A DNA stretch of 64,000 bases from the NCBI GenBank assembly GCA_965203175.1, contig OZ241867.1:192001-256000 (forward strand), written 5' to 3'. Positions 10,698 through 44,828 of the stretch are shown one piece after another (position 1 is the stretch's first letter; each line of letters starts with the position of its first letter). A program made the position numbers and the translations under genes. The stretch is from Candidatus Latescibacterota bacterium. GTDB taxonomy: Bacteria > Latescibacterota > UBA2968 > UBA8231. The notes below the pieces were generated by a model, which was given only the letters and a program-made list of their open reading frames with translations, did not search any database and was not told the origin of the DNA.

Positions 10698-10817
10698 ATT
10701 TTTCACCACCTTGCGATGTCGCGAGCCCTGTATAAGACGGACATTCACAAGGTTGTAATACTGCTCTATGATCATTGAATTGGCTGCGACAAAAAGAGCG
10801 CAGGTTTGCGCGGACAG

Positions 10818-12494
10818 ATGGCTACTTGCTGGGCCGTGACGGTGATTGTCGGGCTGATGGCCGTCGATTCATGGGCTGTGAATTCAGCCGTGCTGGCCAG
10901 AGTCGGGAGCGAAGTCATTCTGGTAGATGACTTGCTCCGCGCCGGGCGCAATATGCGTCGTTTTGCAGCGGGAAATGCGCGGGAAATGCTACAGCCTTTT
11001 ATCGATCGCAAGCTTCTGGTCTTAGAGGCAAAGGCAAAGGGTTTGGATCAGCACCCCGACGTGGTCGCAATCGTGCAACAGGCGCGCGACCGGAGGCTGG
11101 TCGAGCGTCTGTACGGGGAAGTCACGGGAGATGTTTCTATATCAGAAGAGGAACTGCGATCGCATTTCCACCGGAGCGGATTGCACAAAAAACGAGAAGT
11201 GCGGGCGAGTCATATTCAGGTAGGCAGTCTCGAAGAAGCCCAAGCCGTGCAAGAGCAACTGTGGCAAGGTGCTGATTTTGCAGTACTGGCGCGTGAGCAG
11301 TCCCTCGATCGCACATCGGCGGCCAAAGGTGGAGACATGGGTTTCTGGCAGGAGGAGGAAGCACAGCACAGCGGGTTTGTCGCCGAGCTTTTTCACCTGC
11401 CGGTTGGCCAAGTGTCCGAACCGTACCGCAACTCGCAGGGAACCTACCACCTGATCAAGGCCGATGAAGAGCGCTACGTCAGTTTTGAGCGCCAAAAGAA
11501 GATGCTGCGCCAAACGCTGGAAAAGCAGCAAAAAAAAGATCGCTGGTCCAAATACTTAGCCGACCAAAAAACGCACTTTGGTTTTTCAGTAGATGCCCAG
11601 GTATTGGGCGTATTGTTGCAGCGGGGGCGATTAGCTGAAGGCGGTGTGCCCGTGCTAGAAGCAGGAGACCACGCGCGCATCCTGCTGAGCTATAGTGGAG
11701 GGAACATCGACCTGAACGCGTATATGGCTTTGGTAGAGGAGGCCGAACCCAAGCGCCGTCCCCACGCCATAGATAGCACTGCCGTGGTCGAATTTGCCCA
11801 AGACGAAGTACTGCGCAAAATCCTGCTGCCTCTACTGGCCCAACAACGGGGATTGGATCGCGAGGAAGCGGTGATTGAGTTCGTCCGAGATAAGCGCGAA
11901 GAGGCCCTAGTCGAGATGCTGCGGCGAACGGAAGTAGAAGAACACTTTGTCACAGAAGAACAACAGCGCGTTTTATATAGAGATTTGGCAGACGAATTCA
12001 CTCTGCCAATGCGCACGTTTTTTGCCGGTGCCTTGGTCAATTCGGAACCAGCTTCGCGCGCCATCGCCCAGCGCGTGCGCGCCGGCGAGGATATGGCTGA
12101 GATCATGTGCGAGTATCCGGCATTTAAAGGACGCGTGCGTCAGTTCGACATATTTAACTTCACGCTGGCTGACACGGCGACGGCCCAAGGCGCTATGGCC
12201 ACCATGATCCAAGCCGTGCGGGGTGTGCCGATTGGTGGCATCGAGGGTCCGCTCCCCATCCAGTTGAGCGGCGATATGAAGGGGTATCTCGTGCTCGAAG
12301 TACTGGCGATGCGTCCGGAAAAGACCCTCTCTTTTTCTACACCCAAGGTGCAGTCCAGAATATGGCGTCAATTGCGCTACGCCCATCGGCACGCGATTGA
12401 AGAAGACTTTGATAGCTATCTAGATGAGTTGAGGCATAAATATAGGACTGAGATAGTTGTCGATGAACAGGCCCTGTCTAATCTGGAAAAGTAG
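10818..12494 (+). CDS. Exported parvulin-type peptidyl-prolyl isomerase / chaperone (PpiC/PrsA/SurA-like)
   Basis: Signal peptide; VRASHIQV...GADFAVLAREQSLD..SAAKGGDMGF...VSEP...YHLIK rotamase domain; repeated helical chaperone segments and a second, degenerate parvulin-like domain. Confidence 0.85.
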   Translation: MATCWAVTVIVGLMAVDSWAVNSAVLARVGSEVILVDDLLRAGRNMRRFAAGNAREMLQPFIDRKLLVLEAKAKGLDQHPDVVAIVQQARDRRLVERLYGEVTGDVSISEEELRSHFHRSGLHKKREVRASHIQVGSLEEAQAVQEQLWQGADFAVLAREQSLDRTSAAKGGDMGFWQEEEAQHSGFVAELFHLPVGQVSEPYRNSQGTYHLIKADEERYVSFERQKKMLRQTLEKQQKKDRWSKYLADQKTHFGFSVDAQVLGVLLQRGRLAEGGVPVLEAGDHARILLSYSGGNIDLNAYMALVEEAEPKRRPHAIDSTAVVEFAQDEVLRKILLPLLAQQRGLDREEAVIEFVRDKREEALVEMLRRTEVEEHFVTEEQQRVLYRDLADEFTLPMRTFFAGALVNSEPASRAIAQRVRAGEDMAEIMCEYPAFKGRVRQFDIFNFTLADTATAQGAMATMIQAVRGVPIGGIEGPLPIQLSGDMKGYLVLEVLAMRPEKTLSFSTPKVQSRIWRQLRYAHRHAIEEDFDSYLDELRHKYRTEIVVDEQALSNLEK

Positions 12495-12636
12495 TGGCTC
12501 TGCGTTTCTACCCCTAGACGAGCCCAGATCTCTCTACTCTAAATGCGGAAGGAGGTGAATGGATACAGCGTTCGCAACTGCAACTGCAGGAGCAGAAAGA
12601 ACAATATCTCTAATTCCATCAGATAAGGAGAAAAAG

Positions 12637-13566
12637 ATGCGCAAAAACGCACTCATAGCAGCAATGTTGTCCGTGGCACTGGCTAGCTTCGCCTGGGGCC
12701 AGTCCAATGCCAACGGCATCGGTTACTTCGCCTTAGAGGTGCCTACTAATGTTACCATCACCATTGATGGCGACGATGGCGACTGGGCGTGGTTCGACCC
12801 CATTTTCACCGTTGGTCCCGACGAGATGTATGAAATCCAGAAGGCCGAAGTGCTGGACAAGAGCGATCTCGACGTGGCCATCATGACGGCGTGGACGGGC
12901 ACGGACCGCGACAACAGGCTCTACGGCTTTGTGCGCGCCACCGACGACACGCTAGTCGTCACCTCCGACGTCTTTGACGACGGCTGGCGCGACGATGATC
13001 TCGAGATCATCACTGACGCCAACGCCAGCGGCGGTCCACACGACGGCGACGGCGAGTCAGGCACGCGCGCTGAGGGGCAGCAGTTTACCATGCATTTGCC
13101 AGTCCCCGGCGTGTATGAAACGCCCTATGGCGGCGACGGCTCTTGGTGGTTGCGCTGGCAGGTGGTCGAGGAAATCCACTGGATGGATGAGTTTGCCGAG
13201 TCCAGAGTGACGACCAATCCTCCGGGAGCGACCACGGGTTCGACCAACGTCACGGTCAACTACGAGTACAGCATTCCCCTCTGGGATTACGCGTCGTTGG
13301 ACGGTGCGGATAACAGTATCCGCCACGAAAACGAGGCTGGGCAGATCATCCGCCTGACCTATCAGTTGAACGAAGCGGATAATCCCGAAGATCGCCGCAC
13401 CCACCAGCTAGCAACAACCGGTGAGGACGGCGCTTCGGGCAACTGCGATGTCTGCTCGGAGTACACGCTGCTCGGAGCCGACGAGTACGAACGCGCCGAC
13501 GGCGGCGCGGGCACCGCAGTGGAATCCAAGAGCTGGGCAAAAATCAAAGCGACCTTCAACGACTAA
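12637..13566 (+). CDS. Acidic secreted protein with a CBM9/DOMON-like fold and a C-terminal AVESKSWAKIK motif
   Basis: TAAGGAG RBS; signal peptide MRKNALIAAMLSVALASFAWG; ITIDGDDGDW, LYGFVRATDD, DDLEIITD and YEYSIP resemble CBM9-like/DOMON sugar-binding domains. Confidence 0.7.
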   Translation: MRKNALIAAMLSVALASFAWGQSNANGIGYFALEVPTNVTITIDGDDGDWAWFDPIFTVGPDEMYEIQKAEVLDKSDLDVAIMTAWTGTDRDNRLYGFVRATDDTLVVTSDVFDDGWRDDDLEIITDANASGGPHDGDGESGTRAEGQQFTMHLPVPGVYETPYGGDGSWWLRWQVVEEIHWMDEFAESRVTTNPPGATTGSTNVTVNYEYSIPLWDYASLDGADNSIRHENEAGQIIRLTYQLNEADNPEDRRTHQLATTGEDGASGNCDVCSEYTLLGADEYERADGGAGTAVESKSWAKIKATFND

Positions 13567-13586
13567 CCAAACGGTCCTTTGAACAC

Positions 13587-13618
13587 TATTGGGCGGCGGC
13601 ATCTGCCGCCGCCCAATA
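13587..13618 (+). terminator. Perfect GC-rich stem-loop without a U-tract (mRNA stabiliser or partial terminator)
   Basis: TATTGGGCGGCGGCA-TC-TGCCGCCGCCCAATA, a perfect 15-nt inverted repeat 20 nt after the stop of 12637..13566. Confidence 0.75.
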
Positions 13619-13651
13619 ACCGGCATTGCAATTACACTTCCCGAGGTTAAC

Positions 13652-14386
13652 ATGATGGTACGGTTCGGTGCGTGGCTGTGTTCCCTGGTGATGTTGGCAG
13701 GATGTGGACGTTATTTTGACGGGCCAATTCAGCCAGCTCCGCAGGGACAGCAAGAGGCCGATATGGTGATTAAAGACGATGGCTTGATCATCTATTCGTT
13801 CGAGCGTCTGGAGATCGGTCTGCGCCCTATGACCGACGCCGAATTGAACCGCAAATTCCCACAGCAGTCTACGCAAGGGGCCATATCGACCAATCCCTAT
13901 ACTTTCGGCAACTGGAAGCGCATGGGCGAAGAGTGGATGCCGCCCAAATACAGCATATGGCTGCTAAAAGTTAAAAATTACGCCTATCCTAAAGTCGGCG
14001 TCGATCCTCTCAGGATTGAGCTAATTTCAAAGGATGGATATCGCAAGTACGCGCCCCTAGAACCGCTGCAGATCCTAGAATACTACTATTCGTTTATTCA
14101 GGGATATGCCGGCAACGAATACCGGCGTTTTAACGAGCGCGAAGATATGCTCAAGCGCACTATGTTTCAGGAGCAGATCATCTTCAGCGGCCAAGAATCA
14201 GAGGGTTTTGTCGTTTTTCCGAGCCTCGCACCCGACGTGAAGGAGTTTTCTATCCACGTCAAGGGCATTGCATTGCGATACAATTACCGCGACGAGCCCG
14301 TGGAGACCAAGGATCTAACCTTTCACTTTCAGCGCGAGGTGTTTAAGGGGTTTAAGCCACCGCCCGAACTGGTGAATAAGCAATGA
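13652..14386 (+). CDS. Lipoprotein of unknown function
   Basis: Lipobox MLAG-C; C-terminal SGQESEGFVVFP beta-sandwich-like segment; ATGA overlap with the next gene. Confidence 0.75.
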   Translation: MMVRFGAWLCSLVMLAGCGRYFDGPIQPAPQGQQEADMVIKDDGLIIYSFERLEIGLRPMTDAELNRKFPQQSTQGAISTNPYTFGNWKRMGEEWMPPKYSIWLLKVKNYAYPKVGVDPLRIELISKDGYRKYAPLEPLQILEYYYSFIQGYAGNEYRRFNEREDMLKRTMFQEQIIFSGQESEGFVVFPSLAPDVKEFSIHVKGIALRYNYRDEPVETKDLTFHFQREVFKGFKPPPELVNKQ

Positions 14387-16290
14387 TGGCTTCCTTTCGG
14401 CGAACTGCTTCGGTCGGGCTGATCCTGTCGTTCTGTATTGGGACGGCGGAACTGCGAGCCGATGTCTGGGGGGTCGGCCTAGGTGGACAAGCCTGGGAGG
14501 AACCAGCGCAGACTATGGCGGGGGTAGTTGTAGGCGAAGGGCAAGCCCTGGGGCCGGCTAGCTTTTCGCTTGAGCAGAACATAACTCAGTTTATCGTCTG
14601 GGGAGTCGGCGCGCCCAGCAGTTTTATCGCCGAGGGCAACGGACAGGTGTGGAACAATTCGGCGCGGGGCATTGGGGGGTCTGAGGTCCTAGTGGACGGA
14701 GATGGCACGACCAGCACGGAAAATAGCTTTAAGGAAGTGGGGGTCAATCAGCGCGGACGCATTTTTTTTCTAGATCTCGGGGCTTCGTTTCCAGTTAGCC
14801 AGATTGTTTTTTACCCCCGCGAAGGAGAGGATGAATTCGTCGCCGGTTACGAGATATCACTCAATGACGGGCGCACTTTCGACGCCAATGACTCGCCCGT
14901 TTACGAGGCCGTTCGCCAAGTGACGATCAACCGCGATCCAAGAGTGGATGTGCGCTTCCCGACTCAATTGGTGCGCTTTATTCAACTCAGAGTGCTTTCA
15001 CCGAGCCCCTTTGAACTGGCAGAAATCGAAGTACACGGCGAAGGCTTTGTACCGCGTGGACTCTACGAAACACAGCTCATCCAGTTTGCACAGCCTGTCA
15101 ACTACGGTGCATTGACTTTTCGCGCGCACAGAGTTTCGCTGTCCGAGGAAGGCGAAAGCAGCGCGGGTGCCGACGAGCAAGTGCGGGTGATCGTGCAGAT
15201 GCGCAACGGCGTCGACGAAACGCCTCTCGACTACTACCAAATCGCCGACGTAGAGACCCGGTCGGAAGTGCTGATCAGCAAAGAGGAGTACGAAGAACTG
15301 CCGTTGGTCCTCAAGGGCAGCATTCGCCCGGATGCCACGCACTGGTCCTCTTGGACGGAGCCGCTCATCGCCGACTCTAGTGGCACGTATTCCATTCCGC
15401 TGGATCTGCCGGGGCCGCGCGATTTTTTCCAGGTGCGCCTGCGCTTTGAGGGCAATACCTCCGCCAGCATGCAGATCGATAGCCTAGCCATCGTGCACAC
15501 GCCGCCGTTGGCTGCGCTGGCATTGAGCGAAGTAGCCCTATTGGACGATCCCTTTCCGGCCGGTGGACGCGCGTCCGTTCCGGCCGGTCGGGATACGGTT
15601 TTCACCTACGACATAAAGGCCGACTTAGGCGAGGGAACGGGCTTTGACGGCGTGCGTATCTCGACGCTGATACAGCCCGAATTTCTCAAATTGGAAATGG
15701 GGCACGAGTTGGAGGAGATACAGCCGGATAGCGTGCACGTGGACGATACGGGTTTGCGCGTTTATTTCCCATCCCGGCGCATTAGCACAGGAGAAGATGT
15801 GCGTCTGCGGATTACGTTTCGCTCGCAGGCCCTACTTTTTTCCACCCAGTTTATAGGACAGCTTCTGGATACGACGGGCAGCCTTCCCCAGCGCATTGCC
15901 GAGGGCGACGCGACGCGGGAAGTAGGCACGGACTCGCAGGAGGTAATTTTCCTCGCCAGCGGCGAAAGCGTGCTGCAGTCCTTTGCCGTTTCTCCACCGG
16001 CGATAACGCCCAATGGCGATGGCATAAATGATTCGTCCGTCTTCTCTTTTGTGCTCATCCATTTGGTGCAGCCCGCCGCGGCGGAACTGCTCGTATACGA
16101 TCTTTCGGGTCGCTTAATAAAAAACGTGCTCTCCGATGCGCTGACCGCCGGGCGTTATACCCAGTGGCACTGGGACGGAACGAACAATGCCGGCGATCTG
16201 GTGCCACCAGGGACCTATATCGCCAGAGCCTCAATACAGGCAGCTGCCGACGAAGTCAACCGCATGCGCCTGATCTACGTGGCCTATTAA
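14383..16290 (+). CDS. Secreted discoidin-like protein with a C-terminal TPNGDG/FlgD-Ig domain (paralog 1)
   Basis: Signal peptide; LVDGD..T...FLDLG...LAEIEVHGEG (F5/8-like); ITPNGDGIND...YDLSGR...WDG...PPGTY...VAY. Confidence 0.75.
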   Translation: MMASFRRTASVGLILSFCIGTAELRADVWGVGLGGQAWEEPAQTMAGVVVGEGQALGPASFSLEQNITQFIVWGVGAPSSFIAEGNGQVWNNSARGIGGSEVLVDGDGTTSTENSFKEVGVNQRGRIFFLDLGASFPVSQIVFYPREGEDEFVAGYEISLNDGRTFDANDSPVYEAVRQVTINRDPRVDVRFPTQLVRFIQLRVLSPSPFELAEIEVHGEGFVPRGLYETQLIQFAQPVNYGALTFRAHRVSLSEEGESSAGADEQVRVIVQMRNGVDETPLDYYQIADVETRSEVLISKEEYEELPLVLKGSIRPDATHWSSWTEPLIADSSGTYSIPLDLPGPRDFFQVRLRFEGNTSASMQIDSLAIVHTPPLAALALSEVALLDDPFPAGGRASVPAGRDTVFTYDIKADLGEGTGFDGVRISTLIQPEFLKLEMGHELEEIQPDSVHVDDTGLRVYFPSRRISTGEDVRLRITFRSQALLFSTQFIGQLLDTTGSLPQRIAEGDATREVGTDSQEVIFLASGESVLQSFAVSPPAITPNGDGINDSSVFSFVLIHLVQPAAAELLVYDLSGRLIKNVLSDALTAGRYTQWHWDGTNNAGDLVPPGTYIARASIQAAADEVNRMRLIYVAY

Positions 16291-16317
16291 TGCCCATTTA
16301 AACGCGGAAAACTGAGT

Positions 16318-18267
16318 ATGACGTACAAAGTGGCGCTAGCTCTTTTGCTCTTGGCCCCTTGTTTTGCAAAGGCACAGGTAGAGCGATTCGTGCTAGGTAC
16401 AGGAGATAACGGCTGGGAAGAACTATCCGAGTTGATGGGCGGCATGTGGGTTGTGGACGGCGGTCTGCAGCCCTACGAATTGGATCCAGCGGTCAATATC
16501 GCGCTGGGCGAGAAGAAGGGCAGCTCGCGCGCCGACGTCTTCGGCAACCCTTGGGGGGGAGAACGGGGCGGGACGCAGAACGCACGTCTCATTCCCGGCC
16601 AGCCCGAGGTCCTCGGAGATAACGGCTTTGTATATACAATAGACGGTGACACGACCCGGTCAGTGGCCATTGTCTCCGGCTATTATTACTACAACCTAGG
16701 CTGGGAATTGCCCATCAATCGCATCCGCTTTTTTTCCCCGGCAGAAGGGCGCACCCAGACCGACGACCGCAAGCGGATCACACCGGGTTTACCGCTCAAA
16801 AACGCCTATCCCAAGCTTTATGAAGTTTGGGCTGCAATTGATGGAGAGCGCTTTAAGCGAGGGCAGTTTGACCTTTTACTAGAGCAGAATCTCAACCAAA
16901 CCACGCGCATCGCCAATGCTCGTTTTCCCACTCAGCCCCTGCAGTTCATTTTCATAAGCTTCCCGGAATTGGGCGTCATTGCCGAGGTGGAGTTTTACGG
17001 CGAGGGTTTTGTGCAAAAATCTCAATACCTCTCCAAGGTGATCGACATCGGCGAGCCGGTCAATTTCGGGCGGGTCATGCCCTATTTCAACGGGTTTGTC
17101 AAAGAGAGCATAGACAGCGAACCCGAACTTTTGGCAGAAAGCCCCATCTCCTTTTCGCTGGAAACGCAGACCGGTCGGGACGATACGCCGCAGGTCTACA
17201 GCATCTACACCGAACTGAGAACCGAACGCGAAGTGAGTTTTGCCGAATGGGATAAAGCGCCGTACGATGATTACGTGCGTCCTGGAGCTCAGGGGCCGGA
17301 GCGGCCCGACGTGGACAACTGGAGCTTCTGGTCGGTGCCACAAGAAGCGTCTGCGGGCGAAGGCATAGAGATCCTTTCGCCGGATAATCGGCAGTATCTC
17401 AAAATCAACTTCACGATGGCAAGCGAGGATTTGTTCACCTATGGCCGGATGGATTCGCTGGTCGTAGAATACTCGCCTCTGCTGGTCGATGCGGTCGTCG
17501 GGGAGGTCGCATTACAGGACGAACCACAACCGCTCGGGCGCAAGACGGAAGTACCCTTGGGCGAGGAGCGCATCTTCACTTTTGACGTGCGGGCCGACTT
17601 TGAATCGGAGACCAAGTCGGGTTTTGACGCCTTAAGGCTGCAAACCCCGGGCCGCGTCCAGTTTATAGGACTGGAAATGGGCGACCCCTTAGTCGCTGTG
17701 GAACCCGACAGCACCGCGGAAAAACGGGGCGAACTGATCGTCTATTTTCCGTCCAACCGCATCACAGCTACAGACAACAGGCCGCTGCGGCTGCTGTTCA
17801 AAACGGGTGTCTTCAGTTTTAACGCCCTATTTCAGGGCGAGATATTTGTCGTGGGGGGAGGAGGACAGCCCCAATCTATCGATCCGGGAGATGCCAACGC
17901 GGAGGTATCGACCAATTCCATCGAGGTGCTGGCACTGAGCGAGGAGTTAGATGTGCTGAGCGCATTGGACGTGGGATCAACCGTAGTGACGCCGAATGGC
18001 GACGGACTCAATGACACGTTTGAACTGGCCTATTCACTGCTGGGCGTGCAGGCGAGCCAAGTGGTCTTTGAAATCTACGATTTGCGCGGACGCAAAGTGC
18101 GAACGATATCGACCGTTTCTAGGAGTGAAGGGCGTTATGTCGAAGAGTGGGATGGACGGGGAGAGGGGATGGGGCGCGTGGCTCCGGGCCTATACCTCGC
18201 CCGACTTTCCGTCGAAACGGATGCAGGTGACTTCACGAGTACGCGCACCATTGCGGTGGCCTACTAA
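16318..18267 (+). CDS. Secreted discoidin-like protein with a C-terminal TPNGDG/FlgD-Ig domain (paralog 2)
   Basis: Signal peptide (AKA); TIDGD...IAEVEFYGEG; VTPNGDGLND...YDLRGR...WDG...APGLY...VAY; collinear with paralog 1. Confidence 0.75.
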   Translation: MTYKVALALLLLAPCFAKAQVERFVLGTGDNGWEELSELMGGMWVVDGGLQPYELDPAVNIALGEKKGSSRADVFGNPWGGERGGTQNARLIPGQPEVLGDNGFVYTIDGDTTRSVAIVSGYYYYNLGWELPINRIRFFSPAEGRTQTDDRKRITPGLPLKNAYPKLYEVWAAIDGERFKRGQFDLLLEQNLNQTTRIANARFPTQPLQFIFISFPELGVIAEVEFYGEGFVQKSQYLSKVIDIGEPVNFGRVMPYFNGFVKESIDSEPELLAESPISFSLETQTGRDDTPQVYSIYTELRTEREVSFAEWDKAPYDDYVRPGAQGPERPDVDNWSFWSVPQEASAGEGIEILSPDNRQYLKINFTMASEDLFTYGRMDSLVVEYSPLLVDAVVGEVALQDEPQPLGRKTEVPLGEERIFTFDVRADFESETKSGFDALRLQTPGRVQFIGLEMGDPLVAVEPDSTAEKRGELIVYFPSNRITATDNRPLRLLFKTGVFSFNALFQGEIFVVGGGGQPQSIDPGDANAEVSTNSIEVLALSEELDVLSALDVGSTVVTPNGDGLNDTFELAYSLLGVQASQVVFEIYDLRGRKVRTISTVSRSEGRYVEEWDGRGEGMGRVAPGLYLARLSVETDAGDFTSTRTIAVAY

Positions 18268-18308
18268 ACAGGTTGCGTATAAGCGCTAAACTCTGTCGAG
18301 GATGTACC

Positions 18309-20627
18309 ATGAGGAAATTCGCTGCAATTCGACTTTTGCTCGTCGCCACCCTGTGTGCAGCAGGTGCCTATGCCGACGAACTGCGCCTGAGCAGCCCGGC
18401 GGACTGGCAGACGTGGACCATTCCCAAGGGCACGCTGGAAATTGCCGACGACGGCAGCATCAGCCTGGCGTGGATGCGCCGCAATATAAACGCCGTGGCC
18501 GATGCGGCAGAGTTTTCCCATAGCGAAGGCAAGAAACAGGTTTTTGGTGGTATCCGCGCCGTGAATTCAAATCCCCAAGATGCGGCTAATATTATTGACC
18601 AAGACCCATCGACTTGGTGGCAGCCGTCTGCCGATGATCCGCTGGAAGATTGGTGGATCGAAATCGACCTCGGCCGACCAGTATTGGCACGCAAGTTGCG
18701 CCTTGTCTTTCCGGACTCACCCGACGCCAAGCCCTTTCGCAATTTCACGACTTACATAAGCAACGGTGTAGATACGCGTTATGGCGTGACCTACCACCCG
18801 GTCGCCGTCACGACAACACCCAATGTAGAGAGAGTTTTTGAAGTCGATCTGAAACGAATTGAGATCGGTGTGGCCAGCGGAGAACATCTCATAGAGCAGG
18901 ACACGCTGGATTTTAACCTCGTCCACCACGTGCGCCTAGTGCCCACGGAAAAGAATCCAGGCGCGGCGCTGGCTGAGGTCGAAGTGGATGCACTGGGAGA
19001 TAATCTCGCCATAGGTACAGTGGAACGGGGCGGGTCGGTGCGAGCGGGGCGGAGCGAAGATAAGATCGGGATGATCTTCGATGGGGATGTCAATACCAAC
19101 TGGCGACTTGCCGTCGGTGGTGACCAGGCCAAGGAGGGCAATCTCAGGACCTACGTCGAAGACGGCGATTGGTTCGAATGGGATCTGGGTGCCACGTTCT
19201 GGGTAGACCACCTTTCCCACATAGACCTGGCTGTCGGAGACGGAGAGGGGTCTCGTGGCTCCCACGGGTACGGGGCCAAGCTATTTATCCTCACCACTTC
19301 GGACGGTACGCCGGCCAGCGGCCTGACCAGCGACCGCATTCGCAGCAATTTCGACTACCAAGAACTCAGCGACGTATTCAACGATAGATTCCCCACCCAA
19401 CAGTCGTATCACTTTGCATTCCCGCTGCGGAAAATCCGCCATATCTTCTACCACCGCAGCGGCATTCCGATGCGCCTGCAGATCCGCCAGACGGTTTTTG
19501 AATACATACTCCACGGCGAGGGGCACGTCGCAGCGACGGAAATGATTTCGGACTTCATCGACCTAGGCTCAATGAAGAGCGTGCGCAAGCTGTCATGGGA
19601 CGCCGATTTACCTGCCGGCACGCAGATCGAAATTCGCTCGCAGACGGGCAATACCTTTGAACTGCAGAAGAAGTACTACCATAAGAACGGCACGGAACTG
19701 GACTCGGCCCGTTTTGGCAAGCTGCCCAAGAGCGTGCGCGGGCGCATCGACACCCTCAAGCTCAAAGGGCCGGATTGGAGCGGCTGGAGCCAGCCCTATG
19801 ATTTTCCCGAGGAGGCATTCCTCTCGCCTACGCCCAGACAATTTCTACAACTACAGATTCAACTAGCCAACGACGATCCACAACTGACGCCGGTACTGCA
19901 TTCCCTGACCCTGGAATTCGACGATCCCCTCGTCAGCGGTGGCATTGCTGCACGCATATTGCCGCGCGAGGTCGGACTAGATTCCCTGCAGCGCTTTACG
20001 TATTTGCTGCAACCGACCTTTGTGCGCAACGACCAAGGCTTTGACGAGGTCTTTATCCAAGTGCCGGGCGAGGTGCAAGAGGTTGGCGTCCGAGTCGGCG
20101 GACAGAGCGTGCAGCCGAGGGAAATTGAACTGGCAGACGGGTTGCTAAGAGTCGGACTGCCGGAGCGGGTGTGGGAGGATTCGGTGGAAGTGCTGTTTAC
20201 CGCGCAGGTAACAGCCAATGCCACGCTCTTTGAGGCTTGGGCCGGGGACAGCCAGCAGAATGTGCGCCAAGGCGTCGAACCCTTAGCGCCGCGCTCGATG
20301 ATCGTTTTTGTGCCCGACGTGGCCGGTGGGAATTTGCTGCGCAATGTGCAGGTGACTCCGGTCGTTACGCCCAACGGCGATGGCGTAAACGACGAAGCGC
20401 AAATCGACTTTATCGTGGTCCAGGTTGAGGGCAATCCCAACGTGGATATCTACGACCTAACCGGATCGCACCTGCGGACGCTCGAGCTAGGTGCCGCAGG
20501 TTTCGCGTGGGATGGCCGGGACGATGCGGGAGCGGTTTTGCCGCCGGGTGTGTATATCTGCCGCATCCAGATGGAAGCCGACTCTGGAGACCAGTCGGTA
20601 TATCGCACCATTAGTTTGGCCTATTAA
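18309..20627 (+). CDS. Secreted protein with two discoidin-like domains and a C-terminal TPNGDG/FlgD-Ig domain (paralog 3)
   Basis: Signal peptide (AYA); IIDQDPSTWW...IDLG and IFDGDVNTNW...WDLG; VTPNGDGVND...YDLTG...WDG...PPGVY...LAY. Confidence 0.75.
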   Translation: MRKFAAIRLLLVATLCAAGAYADELRLSSPADWQTWTIPKGTLEIADDGSISLAWMRRNINAVADAAEFSHSEGKKQVFGGIRAVNSNPQDAANIIDQDPSTWWQPSADDPLEDWWIEIDLGRPVLARKLRLVFPDSPDAKPFRNFTTYISNGVDTRYGVTYHPVAVTTTPNVERVFEVDLKRIEIGVASGEHLIEQDTLDFNLVHHVRLVPTEKNPGAALAEVEVDALGDNLAIGTVERGGSVRAGRSEDKIGMIFDGDVNTNWRLAVGGDQAKEGNLRTYVEDGDWFEWDLGATFWVDHLSHIDLAVGDGEGSRGSHGYGAKLFILTTSDGTPASGLTSDRIRSNFDYQELSDVFNDRFPTQQSYHFAFPLRKIRHIFYHRSGIPMRLQIRQTVFEYILHGEGHVAATEMISDFIDLGSMKSVRKLSWDADLPAGTQIEIRSQTGNTFELQKKYYHKNGTELDSARFGKLPKSVRGRIDTLKLKGPDWSGWSQPYDFPEEAFLSPTPRQFLQLQIQLANDDPQLTPVLHSLTLEFDDPLVSGGIAARILPREVGLDSLQRFTYLLQPTFVRNDQGFDEVFIQVPGEVQEVGVRVGGQSVQPREIELADGLLRVGLPERVWEDSVEVLFTAQVTANATLFEAWAGDSQQNVRQGVEPLAPRSMIVFVPDVAGGNLLRNVQVTPVVTPNGDGVNDEAQIDFIVVQVEGNPNVDIYDLTGSHLRTLELGAAGFAWDGRDDAGAVLPPGVYICRIQMEADSGDQSVYRTISLAY

Positions 20628-20668
20628 TAAACAACGTGTTGCGCAGCGGTAAAAAAGGGAGGGAACAA

Positions 20669-23323
20669 ATGGGCCGGAAGTTTTTCGGTGCTCTGCTAAC
20701 GGGTTGCCTTTTGGCAGGTGGAGTGTTAGCCGAAGGCCTGCAATCGGGCTTTCTCAACCCCTATGTCACCAGCGGTGTGCGGATATCGCCCCAGACCATC
20801 ACGCCAACTATGCGGAAATGGTATCTGCCCCAAACGCTCTACGATATCTACGGATGGAAAAACTGGGAGTACACCAACTACGCCAGGGATCGCTACGAGC
20901 GCTATACCGATATCGTGCTGCAGGGCCAGCGCTTTTACGATATCTACGGCAATTACATCACGCGCGGCTGGAAGGTCTACGAGTGGGCGCAACAGCACCC
21001 CACGGAAACGGGCAGCGCGATCGACAAGTCCGTGGAGTTCAACAACTGGTTCAATAACCTAGTCATTTCAACGGCGTCGCAGGGCCAATATCACATGGCG
21101 TTGACCGTGGGCGAGCAACTGAGGACGACGCTGACGCCGATGACCTTTTCCAAACCGCTGTTTAACGGCGTGCAATGGGATTTCCTCTCCGATAAATACG
21201 CCCTGACGCTGCTCGCCTCGCGCACAGACAATCCCGCTCTGGCGGCCACGGCGACCAACCGCGACCAAGGGGCCACGGTGCGGACGATCTTCACCAATCT
21301 GATTGGCCTGCGCGGTACGGCCCAAATCGGCGACTTTATCAAGCTGGGCACGACCTACGTCAATGCCGGGCACTGGAATAGCTCGGAAAGCTTCGGCAAC
21401 AACTCTCTCAAGGGCACGCTCGGCGGCAACCTGCAGGCGGGCAACGTGCAGCGTCTCCTAGTGCGTCTATCCGACGATTCGCCCGAGGACGGCGAAGGAG
21501 GGGCATTGCTCTTTCTGCACCGCGTGTACATAAATGGCGTAGAGCATCCCGAAATCTCCGACCGGGCGCTGGTAGACGGCGGCATCCGGCGGCAGGGACG
21601 TTGGGAGGCCAGCGGCGGCAACAACATCATCATTACCTACGACATCGAGCGCGACTTCACGCCCATTCCCGGCGAAGATGAGATCATCGACTTCAAGGAA
21701 ATCAAAAAGATCGAGATCGAATTGGTCCTAGCCAATGACTATGCCGTTGAAGTCACTTCCAATATGCAGGTCAACAACACGGGCGAGCCTGTATTTTTGC
21801 CCGTCACCCGCGCGGAGAAAAACATCAAAGACGGCTCCAACCAGCGCGTGGTGCGCTTTAGCTACGGCTTGCCGACGGCCAATGAAGTCGCCGGTCTCAC
21901 CATGGAAATCGACGACCTCTTCGGCGGGTTTAACTTGCGCGCCGAATACAATGTCAATCGCAAATACCGCCGCTTTCCCAACCAGAATTTCACCTACAAT
22001 CAGGCGCTGGGGAAAGAAAGCGCGGAGGGCTACTATGCAACGGCGTCGCACAATGTGTACCCGTGGTTTGCCTATGGCGAAATTTTTAGCATGGACCCGG
22101 GCTATCAGACATTCATGTTCGTGCCCGACAGCAACGGGCGCATTAACTACGAAAGTGCTGTAAACAACGTCTACGAATTCGTAGACGACAACGACGACCA
22201 GGACCGCTTTCCCGACTGGCGTAGGCGAGCCTTCAGCAGTTCCTCGTCGGAGCGCTTACTGATCCAACGGGCTGACGTGGCTGTCTTTCCCGGCTATGAT
22301 GAGAACAACGACTTAGTGTCGGACTTCAACCAGAACGACAACGGCATGCCGGACTATCTAGAGCCCTTTGTGCGCTACGATGTCGATCCGCTGGAGTTTC
22401 TCTACGGCACAGACATGAACAACAATACAGTGATCGACCGCTTTGAAAACGACGAGGAAGCGGACTACCCGTATCCCCGCGACCACCGAGGTTACAACTT
22501 CTACGGTGGCGCCGAACTCAAGCCGGGCAGCCGCATAATGGTCGGCCGCATGCGCGAATGGCTGCTGAGCAGCAACCGCCGCAACAAGTCGCTATACGGT
22601 CTGCTAACACTGACTCACGAGGTGCCTCGCCACGGTTTGCAGATGCAGCTCTACAACGGCCTTCGCAGCGTCGAAGACAATATCCCCGAAGACATCATTC
22701 TGTGGGTGCAGGGTCCGCGTACACGGGGCGATATGCGCCCCTTCGTCGATCCCATGATTGCGCAGGATGCGCTGATCAACACCACCTTTCTGAGTGCACG
22801 CACGCGTAAATACGCCCCGCTCAATCTAGAGACCAAGCTGAAGTACGAGATCTATCACCAGCGCGGAGACCAGCAGCCGCCAAACTGGCAGGACGAGAAG
22901 CTCTTCGCGCTGATCACCAAGGCGGATCTGCCCATTCCGGTAGGTAAACACGTGCTGTGGCCTAGGTGGAAACAGCTCTACAAGCGGCGCTCACCCACGG
23001 ATAAAACCGAGCTAGAGAATAACGAGCTGTCGGAAATTTTCTTCTTCGTGTGGCAGCAGGAGCTGATCAGTACAATGCGCCTAGAGTCCGGCATCGAGTA
23101 CGAGATTTTCAGGAATATGGTCGAACGCACCGATCCGCTGCCCGCCGGATACGTGGACGATTTCGAACAGTTCGTGATTGCTGCGCAACTATCCAATCGC
23201 TCGGACTATCTGGGCTATCGCCTGATGACCAACATCGGCGGACGCTGGGAACGGCGCGATTTTCGCGACGAGACGACGACGGATCTGGTGCTGTTTCTGA
23301 GCATGTTTGCCGGATTGCAATAA
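20669..23323 (+). CDS. Large putative outer-membrane beta-barrel protein with acidic Ca-binding-like repeats
   Basis: Signal peptide (VLA); aromatic-rich alternating strands (LESGIEYEIF, YRLMTNIGGRWE, VLFLSMFAGLQ); central DDNDDQD / DENND / DMNNN repeats. Confidence 0.6.
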   Translation: MGRKFFGALLTGCLLAGGVLAEGLQSGFLNPYVTSGVRISPQTITPTMRKWYLPQTLYDIYGWKNWEYTNYARDRYERYTDIVLQGQRFYDIYGNYITRGWKVYEWAQQHPTETGSAIDKSVEFNNWFNNLVISTASQGQYHMALTVGEQLRTTLTPMTFSKPLFNGVQWDFLSDKYALTLLASRTDNPALAATATNRDQGATVRTIFTNLIGLRGTAQIGDFIKLGTTYVNAGHWNSSESFGNNSLKGTLGGNLQAGNVQRLLVRLSDDSPEDGEGGALLFLHRVYINGVEHPEISDRALVDGGIRRQGRWEASGGNNIIITYDIERDFTPIPGEDEIIDFKEIKKIEIELVLANDYAVEVTSNMQVNNTGEPVFLPVTRAEKNIKDGSNQRVVRFSYGLPTANEVAGLTMEIDDLFGGFNLRAEYNVNRKYRRFPNQNFTYNQALGKESAEGYYATASHNVYPWFAYGEIFSMDPGYQTFMFVPDSNGRINYESAVNNVYEFVDDNDDQDRFPDWRRRAFSSSSSERLLIQRADVAVFPGYDENNDLVSDFNQNDNGMPDYLEPFVRYDVDPLEFLYGTDMNNNTVIDRFENDEEADYPYPRDHRGYNFYGGAELKPGSRIMVGRMREWLLSSNRRNKSLYGLLTLTHEVPRHGLQMQLYNGLRSVEDNIPEDIILWVQGPRTRGDMRPFVDPMIAQDALINTTFLSARTRKYAPLNLETKLKYEIYHQRGDQQPPNWQDEKLFALITKADLPIPVGKHVLWPRWKQLYKRRSPTDKTELENNELSEIFFFVWQQELISTMRLESGIEYEIFRNMVERTDPLPAGYVDDFEQFVIAAQLSNRSDYLGYRLMTNIGGRWERRDFRDETTTDLVLFLSMFAGLQ

Positions 23324-34395: not shown

Positions 34396-36624
34396 TCAGC
34401 TAAAGCGCCGCAACCGGAGCGCGTTCATCACCACCGACACCGACGAAAAGGCCATCGCGAGGCTCGCCAGCATTGGATTGAGCAGCGGACCGCCGAATAG
34501 GTAAAGTGCGCCCGCAGCCACCGGAATGCCTGCGGCGTTGTAAAAAAACGCCCAGAATAAATTCTGCTTTATGGTCCGCACAACCGCTCGGCTCAACTCA
34601 ATGGCTCGCGCCACATCCGCCAACCGGCTGTGCATGAGCACCACGGGAGCAGACGCGGCCGCCACATCCGTCCCAGTGGCAAAGGCCATACCCACATCGG
34701 CGGTGGCTAGCGCTGGCGCGTCGTTGATCCCGTCGCCGACCATGGCCACGCAGCGGCCCTCGTCCTGCAATGCCTGCACGGTCGCGGCCTTGTCTGCGGG
34801 CAAGACCTCGGCACGCACGGTCTCAATCCCCACTTGACGCGCCACGGCTTCTGCGGCCGGACGGCTGTCGCCCGTGAGCATCACCACTTCCAAGCCGCCT
34901 TGGCGCAGCCGAGCCACGTCGTCCTTGCTCTGCGGACGGGGGCGGTCGGCCAAAGACACGCGACCTACCAATGCGCCCGCCACCGCAATCCACGCGACAG
35001 TGGCACCGTCCGCCGAGTCGCTGTCTTCATCTACGCGAACTCCCACCGCCGCCATCATGGCGCGATTGCCCACCACCACATCCTCGCCTTCTACCGTGGC
35101 CTGCGCACCTTTGCCCGGACTCGCCACAACTTCGGTAGCCTCCGGCACGGCAAGGTCCCGCTCTGTTGCGGCGGCCACAATCGCCGCAGCCAGTGGATGC
35201 TCTGAGCCGCGCTCCACGGCCGCGGCCAAGCTCAGCACTTCGTCGGCGCGGCGGCCGTTTAACGGCTCTACTGCCACCACCTGCGGCCGCCCCTCGGTAA
35301 TCGTGCCGGTTTTGTCCAGCACCACGGCATCTACTTTGTGCGCTGTTTCCAGCACTTCTGGACCTTTGAACAGGATGCCTAAATGCGCGCCGCGTCCCGT
35401 ACCGACCATGATCGCGGCCGGCGTGGCCAAGCCCAAGCTGCACGGGCAGGCGATGATCAACACGGCCACAAAGACTTGCAACGCAAAGCTCAGGCCCTCC
35501 CCAGCCCATAGCCAACCCACTGCGGCCACCGCGCCTATGACTAGCACGGCCGGCACGAAATACCCAGCAATGATATCGGCTAGGCGGGCAATCGGCGCTT
35601 TACCCGCCTGCGCGGCTTCGACTAAGCGCACCATTTGCATCAGCATCGCATCCCCGGCCGTGCGCGTTGCACGCACCATGAGTGCACCCGCGCCGTTGAG
35701 GCTACCACCAGTCACAGCATCGCCCAGTTCCTTGGCCACGGGCAGCGACTCGCCGGTCAGCAGCGACTCATCCACCGTAGAGTTTCCTTCGACGACTTCG
35801 CCGTCGGCTGGAATGCGCTCGCCCGGACGCACGCGCAGGCAGTCACCCACTTCGATGGCGTCGGCCGCGATTTCCCGCTCCCCATCGTCAGTCACCAGTG
35901 CGGCCTTGTCGGGTTTGAGCCGCAGCAGGGCACCTATGGCCTCCTCGGCCCGCAACCGCGAGCGCGCTTCGAGATAGCGGCCCATTAGCATGAAGGTGAG
36001 GATCGTCGCAACCGTCGGGAAATAGGAGTCAAACGCCGCAACCGCACCCACAGCGACGGACCCCAAGCCCCAAGCGCTGTAGATCCACGCCGCAGCCGTG
36101 CCAATGGCGATGAGCGAAAACATGTTGGGTCGGCCCCGCCACAGAGCTTGTCCGCCTTCGGCGTAGATCTGGCGGCCAACCCACATCACCGGCAGCACAA
36201 ACAGCAGATGCAAAACGCCTACCCGCAGAGGATGCTGGACCAAGGACAGCGCCGGGACAACGGGTGCGGCCATCTGCTCGACCATCTCCACTGCAAAGAG
36301 CGGCAGCCAAAATACAACAGCCCAGCGAAATGACCCCGCTTGCTCGGCGAGTTCGGTCCGCTTGCGCTCCTGCCGCCTAGCCGCGCCTTCGGCTTCGGGC
36401 GTTTGCACCCGCGCCCGGAACCCCGCCTTTACCACGGCCGCCGCAATGCTTTCCTCATCCACGGCTACCGGATCAAAGCGCACGGCCATCTGCTCGGTCG
36501 CCAAGTTGACATCAGCTACTTCAACGCCGGCCAAGCCGGACACCTGCTGCTCGACCTGCCGCACGCAGCCAGCGCAGTGCATGCCCTCAATGGCGAAATG
36601 TTGCTCTCTACTGTTTGCCGTCAT
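34396..36624 (-). CDS. copA: Copper-translocating P1B-type ATPase
   Basis: GMHCAGC HMA domain; LTGES; ACPC; DKTGT; SEHP; GDGIND; YN and MAFSS Cu(I)-type TM motifs. Confidence 0.93.
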
Positions 36625-36724
36625 GTTGCAACCTCGGAACTTGACCGACGAACCCACTCAGTACGGTGGTTTTCAATGCCGTCACGGGATTGAAAAATTG
36701 CCGCGACAAGCCATTCGATCAACC

Positions 36725-37168
36725 TCAGTCGAGCGCGCCGATCAGTTTCTTGATCTGCCCCCACGTCGTCTCCTCAACCGCCGTGTCTGGCGGTGGCAGC
36801 GGCGGGGTACTCTCGGGATCGCCGGGGTGAAACGTTTCGCCTTCTGGATTGTCATCGCCCGCCACCCAAGTGCCGTCGGGGTCGCCCAACTCCGCGCCAT
36901 TAGACGCTCCATCGCCGTCGGAATCCAACGCCGCCAGCTCTGGGCCCCAAATCACGTCACCGGGTGCACCGGCTGAGGTAAGGAAGTTGGTTGCAATCTC
37001 CAAGCCAAACGGATTGAGCGGCGAACCGCCTCCAGCCGTGTGGCAGGTGTTGCAACTCACTGCGGAGCCATTGGGAACCTGTCTTACGCGCTTGCTGCGC
37101 GCAGCCGCCTCATCGACAATCACGCCGCATAAAAAGAACACGGCTACCAGCAAAACTCTCAAAGTCAT
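36725..37168 (-). CDS. Small secreted temptin-like protein with a CxxCH motif and a C-terminal TAVEETTWGQIK motif
   Basis: AGGAG RBS; signal peptide; VPNG...CNTCH...GGG..NPFG...W...DSDGDG.SNG.ELGDP...HPG. Confidence 0.7.
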   Translation of the reverse strand: MTLRVLLVAVFFLCGVIVDEAAARSKRVRQVPNGSAVSCNTCHTAGGGSPLNPFGLEIATNFLTSAGAPGDVIWGPELAALDSDGDGASNGAELGDPDGTWVAGDDNPEGETFHPGDPESTPPLPPPDTAVEETTWGQIKKLIGALD

Positions 37169-39140: not shown

Positions 39141-42986
<3,846 letters not shown>

Positions 42987-42995
42987 GGTAGCCTC

Positions 42996-44828
42996 CTACT
43001 CGTGGCCGGCGAAGGTCTCGCGCAGGCTGCCGCAACGGTACATCTGGCCGCCGAAGTAGGGATTTTGGGTCTGCATCGCCTGTTGCAGCCAAGCTGCCCC
43101 CTCGTTGTCAAAGGCCATTGGACAGTGAAAAAGATGCACTGGCCCGGCATGGACGCCCCCCTGCCGCGCCACCCGAATCAGCACCGTCGAGAGCTCAGCA
43201 AAGGCTTGGCGGGCCGCGGCGAGATCACCAGCTCCGCTGATCGCGTCTCCGATCTCCTGCGACGCCGGGTGGACCGCGAGCGTTGCGGCGGCGGCCTGTG
43301 CCCCCAACAGATCGTCCTTGCTCAACGCCTGTTGCGTGGCGAAATAGGCCGTCCAGACCGCGGACGGCGGGCCGTGCGCGTGGCCGTTTGGCTCGTCGTC
43401 GCGCTGGTCGGCCCGCGCTGGCGCATTCATCATGCTCGGCTGGGCGCGGATCTGGAGGGCACTGTCGATTTTGAACGCGCCATTGATCACCACTTGTTCT
43501 CCCTCGCGCAGACCCTCGCGGACCAAGTAGTAATCCCCAGCCCGCGGCCCGAGTACGACCTCGCGGCCCTCGTATAGGCCCTCGCCGAGCGCGACGTACA
43601 CCACGGCGCGTTTGCCCGTCAGCAGTGGTGCCGAAGCTGGCACCACCAGTGGCATCTCGCGCTCCGCCTCGTCGCCAGTGTCATACAACTCTTCGGCGCG
43701 CACTAGGGCCATGCCGCAAATGTCGCAGGCACCGGGCGCGTCGCGGACGATCTCTGGGTGCATCGGGCTGATCCACTTGCCCTTGAGCGCGGGCGACATA
43801 GCGCGCCCGTGGGCTCCGACCTCGGCTTGGGCCACGGCCCACACCAACATCCCCGGCTTCAGCCGACCTTGCTCGTTGGCCACGTTGACTCGCACGCGCA
43901 CCGTACGCGTGCGCTCGTCCAGCACTGGATCGACGAAGGATATTTGGCCGCTGAACACCTCGCCCGGATAGGCTTCGGCCGAGAATTCAACGGCCTGGCC
44001 GTAGTGGATCCAAGATATATCCGATTCGTAGGCGCGGAGTTCCAACCACAGCCGCGACAAGTCCGCAATGGTGTAAATCGGCGTCCCAGTCTGCACGTAC
44101 GCGCCCTCGCTGAGGTGCTTTTCTATCACCACGCCGCCGGTTGGCGCGTAAATCGTCAGATGGTCGGAGGCTTGGCGCTCGCGCTCGACGCGCTCGATTT
44201 GCTCCTCCTTCAGCCCGAGCAGACGCAGCTTTTCGCGCGCAGCCTCGACCGTCGCTTGCGCCGTCTGCCCAACGGACGTGCCGCTGTCAACCAAGCGCTC
44301 GCGGGCGCGCAGGGCCTGAATCAGCTCCTCTTGAGCGGTCAACAACTCGGGGCTGTAGAGATAGGCTATGTGGTCGCCCTTTTCGACTCGCACGCCCGTG
44401 TAGTCCACATACAGCCGGTCAATCCGGCCCGCTACCCAAGCGGTAATAGAGCGAACTTGCGTCTCATCTACCGCAATCTTACCGACCATCCGCGTCTCGA
44501 CCGGCGCGAAGCGGCGCTCGACCGGCGCGGTCTGGATGCTGGCAAGCTCCTGCGCGGCCGGCGAGAGACGCAACTGGCGCGGGGCCAAAATGTCGCCAGC
44601 CTCGGGCGCGGCCACCGGGATTAGGTCCATTCCGCATATTGGACAGTGACCCGGCTTAGGCTGGCGGATCTGCGGGTGCATTGAGCAGGTCCACGTTTCG
44701 CCCTGCTCGACGACTGCGGCGGGTGCATGTCCGCTGGGTGCATCCGAACCGCTCAAACCCCAGCCTACGGCCAAGCCGACGATCCCCGCCACGATACCGG
44801 TAGCTATTATTTGTTTCGTTGCTTTCAT
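42996..44828 (-). CDS. cusB: CusB-family membrane fusion protein with heavy-metal-binding domains and a C-terminal DUF3347-like region
   Basis: WTCSMHP...CPICGMDL; YSPEL; LKPGM; SPMHP...CDICGMAL; HCPMA...NPYFG.MYRCG. Confidence 0.9.
   Translation of the reverse strand: MKATKQIIATGIVAGIVGLAVGWGLSGSDAPSGHAPAAVVEQGETWTCSMHPQIRQPKPGHCPICGMDLIPVAAPEAGDILAPRQLRLSPAAQELASIQTAPVERRFAPVETRMVGKIAVDETQVRSITAWVAGRIDRLYVDYTGVRVEKGDHIAYLYSPELLTAQEELIQALRARERLVDSGTSVGQTAQATVEAAREKLRLLGLKEEQIERVERERQASDHLTIYAPTGGVVIEKHLSEGAYVQTGTPIYTIADLSRLWLELRAYESDISWIHYGQAVEFSAEAYPGEVFSGQISFVDPVLDERTRTVRVRVNVANEQGRLKPGMLVWAVAQAEVGAHGRAMSPALKGKWISPMHPEIVRDAPGACDICGMALVRAEELYDTGDEAEREMPLVVPASAPLLTGKRAVVYVALGEGLYEGREVVLGPRAGDYYLVREGLREGEQVVINGAFKIDSALQIRAQPSMMNAPARADQRDDEPNGHAHGPPSAVWTAYFATQQALSKDDLLGAQAAAATLAVHPASQEIGDAISGAGDLAAARQAFAELSTVLIRVARQGGVHAGPVHLFHCPMAFDNEGAAWLQQAMQTQNPYFGGQMYRCGSLRETFAGHE

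Follow-up and report, generated by a model that had tools for sequence, protein, structure and literature searches.

We found that 92 of the 5,175 genes called in a 6.58-Mb single-contig Latescibacterota genome (G000) have a common short C-terminal tail, T[AS]VExx[ST]WGx[ILV]Kxx[FLY], and that the proteins bearing it fall into 21 sequence clusters (the genes come from our own gene caller and the clusters from BLAST). As far as the searched libraries go, this tail, called the tag below, is probably a previously undescribed C-terminal sorting signal tied to T9SS-like machinery. We give a probability of roughly 0.55 to a reading, built on sequence comparisons, in which the tag would be a peptide-sized alternative to the 80-residue T9SS CTD, sending small cargo into a SprA/PorV/PorU-like outer-membrane pathway.

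The tag and the proteins that carry it

The window, that is, the whole 64-kb stretch of DNA analysed here (C1:192001-256000 of G000), contains two copies of the tag (Table 1). An earlier note on this DNA had reported the same tail on two unrelated proteins, and both copies were confirmed, one on a CBM9-like protein and the other on a Temptin_C protein. The Sec signal peptides that it had ascribed to both are matched by hydrophobic, signal-like N-termini, as judged from sequence by a heuristic. The low-complexity linker that it had placed before the tag is present in both window proteins, but is absent from many other members. The AlphaFold model of the 309-aa CBM9-like protein has a pLDDT of 85.5 and was matched by Foldseek to CBM9 1i82 (E 1.1e-9). 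In this model the tag follows a disordered linker and forms a helix of low confidence (pLDDT ~54); T293, V295, W300 and K304 are invariant across 34 aligned homologues. Among relatives, the strict motif is retained in 30 of 40 CBM9-like proteins and is C-terminal in 105 of the 120 temptin homologues listed, the remainder being mostly AW, NW or GW variants or apparent frameshifts. The CxxCH motif of the temptin-like protein reads CNTCH, a possible haem c site. Its gene is closely followed by one for a heavy-metal P-type ATPase (34396-36657), and a Cus-like efflux cluster (39141-46084) is encoded nearby.

Table 1. Tag copies, the genes that carry them and context genes, in window coordinates
Feature	Position	Strand	Basis
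CBM9-like protein, 309 aa, signal-like N-terminus; one of 40 tagged paralogues (family F0)	12637..13566	+	ORF/gene call, model, clustering
Tag copy 1, TAVESKSWAKIKATFND, then stop; T/AVE linker followed by a predicted helix (residues 299-308)	13513..13566	+	sequence and AlphaFold model
Predicted lipoprotein, 18-member family (context gene)	13589..14386	+	no Pfam/NCBIfam match
Three type-B-like (CHU_C/FlgD-like) CTD proteins, 635-784 aa (context)	14383..20627	+	domain matches
Putative outer-membrane barrel, ~880 aa, 62-member family, barrel fold inferred (context)	20669..23323	+	family search
Tag copy 2, TAVEETTWGQIKKLIGALD, then stop	36725..36784	-	sequence
Temptin_C protein, 147 aa, signal-like N-terminus, CxxCH motif	36725..37168	-	PF24784 E 3.2e-13; start from gene call
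PorV/PorQ-like barrel, 480 aa, one of 11 in the genome	56223..57665	-	

The tag is a property of protein C-termini. Its core, [ST]W[GA].[IVL]K, was found at 100 places in the 42,695 six-frame ORFs of at least 50 aa, and 95 of these occurrences lie within 14 residues of the stop. Among the called genes, 90 of 5,175 contain the core in their last 25 residues, compared to a mean of 0.2 (maximum 2) over 30 shuffles of the tails, and it was not found once in the 1.84 million internal residues of these genes. Positions that had not been requested in the search proved conserved in the 94 seed rows as well: T at -7 (93%), V at -5 (90%) and E at -4 (74%). A PSSM of the tail gave 94 matches scoring at least 20, every one of them C-terminal. 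The regular expression proposed in the earlier note, AVE.{2,6}[ST]W[GA].[IVL]K, held up in that all of its 40 matches are C-terminal, but it misses most tags; the spacing from V to W is fixed. Synonymous codons vary at the T, V, G and K of the tag, indicating that the constraint acts on the peptide; this variation also ruled out a DNA repeat or a mobile element.

The tail consists of two parts, a T[AS][VI]E linker and a predicted helix, [ST]WGx[ILV]Kxx[FLY]. W sits 7-18 residues from the protein end, and the distance from Thr to the end is 14-25 residues. As the earlier note had proposed, there is no transmembrane helix: the best 17-residue Kyte-Doolittle mean within the last 40 residues of tagged proteins has a median of 0.49 and a maximum of 1.95. 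We found no meaningful match to the tail in NCBIfam (0 of 102 tails match any model), in Pfam (three matches, all at chance level) or among PDB sequences (three matches at E 1.9). A truncated CTD was ruled out, because similarity to CTDs ends after the TAV linker, and so was the Bacteroidota O-glycosylation sequon D(S/T)X, Asp preceding Thr in only 8%. Three genes, g767, g768 and g1829 (C1:974463-975961 and 2331405-2331947), carry the SW[GA]x[LI][KR] half without the TAV linker, which hints that the halves are separable; g768 has a lipobox-like LSAC. A gene remnant at C1:1378016-1378123 has the signal-peptide start of the TolB-like family running into the tag tail in another frame. It apparently arose by internal deletion between short repeats, within an array of tagged and CTD-bearing paralogues.

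The tagged proteins appear to be exported. Signal-like N-termini were scored in 88 of 92 tagged genes and in 1,325 of 4,454 other genes, so that the enrichment suggested earlier as a check on the tag was indeed observed, albeit with a crude hydrophobic-window heuristic, used in place of SignalP, that also scores 30% of other genes as positive, and 2-15% of the members of five enzyme clusters that look cytoplasmic. One tagged gene without a signal-like N-terminus, g377 (C1:506297-507157), encodes a protein whose start resembles an anti-sigma factor, an impression gained from its sequence. The 92 tagged genes comprise 40 CBM9-like and 22 TolB/WD40-like members, clusters of 8, 3, 2 and 2, and 15 singletons. 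All 92 encode proteins of 60-364 aa, whereas just 8 of 79 type A CTD cargo proteins are shorter than 400 aa (Mann-Whitney p 2e-25 for tagged versus type A, with paralogues that are not independent) and all type-B-like proteins have at least 442 residues. In other genomes, 66 of 70 complete tagged ORFs among the matches listed are of at most 400 aa and three reach 453-560 aa; two tagged ORFs open at the 5′ end exceed 680 aa. The size ceiling is, thus, a strong preference and not absolute.

Exchange with known sorting signals

The tag occupies the slot that other sorting signals take in homologous proteins. None of the 92 tagged genes has both the tag and a CTD. The WD40 paralogues g1071 (174 aa, tagged) and g1365 (731 aa, with a type A CTD) align (52%) through PTAV/PTAI and then diverge, and the tagged family F2 (8 members) also has a CTD-bearing paralogue. 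Among 48 longer temptin-domain homologues, the C-terminus is a T9SS CTD in 16, MYXO-CTERM-like in 13 and EF-hand dockerin-like in 4; the tag itself was found in none of the 48. One of the 48, P0329, ends in SPVEEWSLYR, a shorter tail, the start and end of which are as in the Eisenbacteria-type form of the tag; this tail is possibly a sister signal. Three untagged CBM9-like paralogues (C1:1287079-1288149, 4692960-4694027 and 5377446-5378540) end in another domain, which we take to be PKD-like and the last strand of which resembles the CTD terminal strand. The exchange of tag, CTD and MYXO-CTERM-like tails, together with the size pattern, provides the strongest signs that the tag is a surface-sorting signal. 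The earlier proposal of a sorting signal is, therefore, supported by this slot as well as by the strict C-terminal position, the signal enrichment and the spread over 21 unrelated clusters.

The linker is a further feature in common with T9SS cargo. In 40 of the 76 type A CTD proteins of G000, T[AS][VI] precedes the PNP motif by 17-23 residues, compared to 73 of 1,771 control windows (p 2e-31); it is found in 75 of 92 tags and in 4 of 135 type-B-like proteins. TAV could, alternatively, be merely a habitual linker of the lineage. Passages of PMC4560394 describe the PorU cleavage motif as X/(GSA)(VLI), with measured sites EPT/ATEQ, LDD/SVED and KGE/GVEA, and report that the Cys690Ala substitution in PorU abolishes cleavage. 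The T[AS][VI]E linker of G000 tags fits this motif. Among the 112 tails listed from other genomes, 47 have Pro at the presumed +1 position, 39 have Ala, 14 Ser and 5 Gly. Thus 58 of the 112 have one of the (GSA) residues there, and the 47 tails with Pro are a misfit to this preference.

Tag-rich genomes and their T9SS genes

A DNA pattern for the tag had 89 matches in G000 and 2 for the reversed control. Across 120 other genomes of the phylum, the pattern separated the families: 56 of 57 genomes from nine tag-rich families (f1, f5-f7, f9 and f11-f14) have 6-120 matches, the exception being G116 with 2, and all 63 genomes from five families (f2, f3, f4, f8 and f10) have 0-4, which equals the control level. 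A profile search of five genomes gave 30 matches in G003 and 0-2 weak ones in each of the other four. In a GTDB scan, 127 of 131 motif matches among those listed lie within 15 residues of the stop, and the loci listed are titled Latescibacterota, Handelsmanbacteria, Eisenbacteria, Krumholzibacteriia and Gemmatimonadota. Twenty scan genomes were searched whole, of which 18 have 8-93 matches (control 0-2) and two have 2. The 18 tag-rich ones are titled Eisenbacteria/Eiseniibacteriota (7), Krumholzibacteriia (1), Latescibacterota (1), Gemmatimonadota (2) and 'bacterium' (7). The tag had been described as lineage-specific; given its abundance in Eisenbacteria- and Krumholzibacteriia-titled genomes, this is too narrow.

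A SprA match is present in all 24 tag-rich phylum members searched (in G015 below the family cut-off) and in all 18 tag-rich scan genomes; SprA was not found in the two scan genomes with only 2 tag matches. SprA, PorV and type A CTDs are, however, also present in all 31 tag-poor phylum members searched, so that co-occurrence shows at most that the machinery is necessary. PorV, SprA, type A CTDs and C25 were rejected as discriminating markers, since phylum members have them with or without the tag (54-55 of 55). A short, PorU-type C25 protein was found in 23 of 24 tag-rich phylum members, the 24th having a C25 gene directly upstream of porV, and also in the tag-poor families f8 and f10. Families f2-f4 have only a long C25 protein of 1,800-2,014 aa (20 of 20 genomes with a match), but, as kin are not independent, the absence of short PorU there may reflect one loss. 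Genomes of f2, f3 and f4 (for example, G029, G043 and G092) lack the tag, the cassette barrel described below and short PorU, have fewer type A CTD matches (7-29), and keep SprA and PorV.

The T9SS genes of G000 include SprA, a porU-porV pair, a PorZ-like match, 103 TIGR04183 matches and 11 PorV/PorQ-like barrels; models of GldM and GldN matched neither G000 nor any control genome. The sole C25 protein of G000 (C1:2958136-2961962; L001:36-3860, plus strand) is a PorU homologue (6ZA2 of P. gingivalis, E 5e-57) encoded directly upstream of porV. The His is kept in this protein, and the catalytic Cys is replaced by Ser (FTAASQ versus ITATCD in 6ZA2). All five of the short copies examined from f1, and the one from f6, have the same replacement. 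The His/Cys dyad is intact in the tag-rich families f5, f7, f9 and f13 and in 17 of 18 tag-rich scan genomes. In several f1 genomes there is, in addition, a long C25 protein with Cys, which is absent from G000. With Ser-PorU as their only C25 protein, the ~100 type A CTD proteins of G000 may be uncleaved, or else cleaved by a serine nucleophile.

How the tag may be read

The reading of the tag as a T9SS-pathway signal rests on its position and conservation, the signal enrichment, the exclusion of CTDs, the common T[AS][VI] linker, the ~365-residue ceiling and the SprA match in 42 tag-rich genomes. In such a pathway, cargo would be exported by Sec and fold in the periplasm, where a dedicated reader would bind the helix of the tag, [ST]WGx[ILV]Kxx[FLY], which has W0, I3 and F7 on one face and an invariant Lys. 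Since the tag is without the beta-strand motifs normally bound by PorV, this reader is probably a carrier or a barrel of the PorV family. The cargo would then pass through SprA and, where PorU keeps its Cys, would be cleaved at T/[AS][VI] and attached to surface glycan. The Ser at the PorU catalytic position means that this last step may be altered or absent in G000; cleavage and anchoring are, thus, plausible in Cys-PorU lineages and doubtful in G000.

The search for a reader gave leads at best and identified none. When PorV (residues 24-349, 21-row alignment) was modelled in complex with the 31-residue tail, the score was 0.02 and gave no answer. A tree of 95 barrel sequences (80 hand-picked from 194 matches, 44 of which were unlisted, with 11 from G000 and 4 PorV) contained one PorV/PorQ-like clade drawn from tag-rich genomes only (support 0.96). 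The profile of this clade scored at least 150 bits, a threshold chosen afterwards, in 19 of 31 held-out tag-rich genomes, in 0 of 16 tag-poor ones and in 0 of 3 from f10 (best 145). A tag-specific PorV/PorQ-like paralogue was nevertheless rejected, as the profile misses 12 tag-rich genomes, one match falls in another clade and several lie beside the cassette barrel. The clade, represented in G000 by L201 and L203 (C1:2798565-2799422 and 3054857-3055789) and often found beside the cassette, is a lead only, a candidate for either the reader or a partner of the cassette.

An unlikely alternative is that the tag is never cleaved and works as a docking peptide, a miniature dockerin whose helix would clip small binding proteins to a periplasmic or surface scaffold independently of T9SS translocation. 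The stereospecific conservation of W, G, I and K at fixed spacing would suit a docking surface. The Ser-for-Cys PorU of G000, the Pro at the presumed +1 position of many tails elsewhere, the dockerin-like C-termini in the same slot of four temptin homologues and the three genes with the SW half alone point the same way. However, no conserved gene or scaffold family recurs beside tagged genes in 47 distant loci (2-kb flanks), and docking leaves unexplained why the linker is common to type A but not to type B CTD proteins.

It is improbable that the tag is an amphipathic membrane-targeting helix, comparable to those of MinD and FtsA, that holds exported proteins on the membrane surface without any protein reader. 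The residue at W+7 is indeed hydrophobic in 81 of 92 tags, the median net charge is +1 and a helix is predicted in the CBM9-like protein at 299-308, but the hydrophobic moment is ordinary (median 0.39, with 43% of untagged C-termini higher). Furthermore, lipid binding would need neither the Gly and Lys nor a Val-to-Trp distance that stays fixed across phyla, and it would not explain the size ceiling.

The earlier note had suggested that the barrel or the lipoprotein encoded next to the CBM9-like gene recognises the tag, and would thereby export or anchor the cargo. These genes belong to a cassette, seen at 10806-23323 of the window and at dozens of other loci, that contains a PPIase, a tagged CBM9-like protein, the lipoprotein, type-B-like CTD proteins (169 in total) and putative barrels of ~900 aa (62). 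Within the phylum, the barrel does follow the tag family by family: a protein search detected it in 20 of 20 genomes from tag-rich families and in 0 of 15 genomes from f2, f3, f4 and f8 (0 of 16 with a profile), although also in 5 of 5 genomes of f10, which have 0-3 tag matches each. Of the 40 CBM9-like tagged genes, 31 have a barrel no more than five genes away, compared to only 5 of the 52 other tagged genes, where 4.5 would be expected at random. Nor was it found in the tag-rich scan genomes, with their 8-93 tag matches, either by protein search (0 of 15) or with a 20-row profile (0 of 18), from which a very divergent homologue could escape. In addition, the steady neighbours of the barrel are type-B-like CTD proteins, which fit better as its cargo; cassettes with type-B-like proteins and barrels adjoin 31-35 of the 40 CBM9-like tagged genes. 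As a general mechanism the suggestion is unsupported, and we rejected the barrel as a universal reader; recognition of the tag by this barrel or lipoprotein is thus a poor prospect, although a contact specific to the cassette may exist in view of the co-occurrence within the phylum. These observations are explained most simply by a cassette that has a single tagged component, and hence depends on the tag pathway, but is not that pathway.

Least credible is a role in periplasmic quality control or turnover, with a protease or chaperone as the reader, which would accommodate the anti-sigma-like g377 and the PPIase genes recurring in cassettes, but not the recognised surface-sorting signals that homologous domains bear in the same slot.

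Like a type A CTD (TIGR04183/PF18962), the tag is a C-terminal signal found with a signal peptide on unrelated cargo, has the same linker as the type A proteins of G000, is interchangeable with the CTD among homologues and occurs with SprA, PorU and PorV genes. It differs in length (14-25 residues from Thr, versus 67-88 for the CTD), in being a predicted helix and not a 7-stranded sandwich, in the lack of motifs B, D and E and of any model match, in its restriction to small cargo and, in G000, in the Ser-PorU. With type B CTDs (TIGR04131/PF13585), which have a cognate PorP/SprF-like barrel, the tag shares no domain similarity, and its adjacency to a barrel concerns one cargo family only; type-B-like proteins are mostly without the TAV linker, and most non-CBM9 tagged genes lie away from type-B cassettes. 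In the signals of LPXTG/sortase, PEP-CTERM/exosortase and MYXO-CTERM, the motif precedes a transmembrane helix and a basic cluster. Like the tag, these signals are short tails, homologous to one another, at the C-termini of many unrelated exported proteins, but the tag has no transmembrane helix, basic cluster or model match. Its fold and the lack of a model match place the tag outside both the type A and the type B family, while its position, linker and genomic context are T9SS-like.

A T9SS signal reduced in size, but with its cleavage-site motif retained, has a precedent. Passages of PMC11969387 describe short CTDs of Prevotella intermedia, of 43-55 residues and predicted to be three-stranded, that have motifs B, D and E and a modelled binding to PorV, and are cleaved and glycosylated; CTDs are characterized there as beta structures with a minimum length of about 40 residues. 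The tag is about one-third the length of these short CTDs and is unrelated to them in sequence after the linker. In the passages seen of PMC11285876, the list of FCB phyla in which T9SS may occur does not include Latescibacterota by name. We found no description of the tail motif in the literature searched, a body that left out most subscription journals and supplements.

Tentatively, and with somewhat less confidence than we would need to favour it, we suggest that FCB-related phyla (Latescibacterota, Eisenbacteria and Krumholzibacteriota) may have a second, peptide-addressed SprA lane for proteins under ~40 kDa, in which a 12-residue helix, graftable onto any small domain, would be read by an adaptor and which, in the present family, would work with Ser-PorU. 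In the passages cited, T9SS signals are described as folded beta domains that span 40-100 residues, and their fold, not their sequence, is thought to be recognised. If the T9SS-pathway reading is true, the tag would be a T9SS export signal without a domain fold, and an alternative of 12-17 residues would overturn the fold-reading rule and imply a new reader. Annotation as envelope or surface proteins would then be possible for hundreds of proteins now called 'hypothetical' in several uncultured phyla, at 6-120 copies per tag-rich genome searched.
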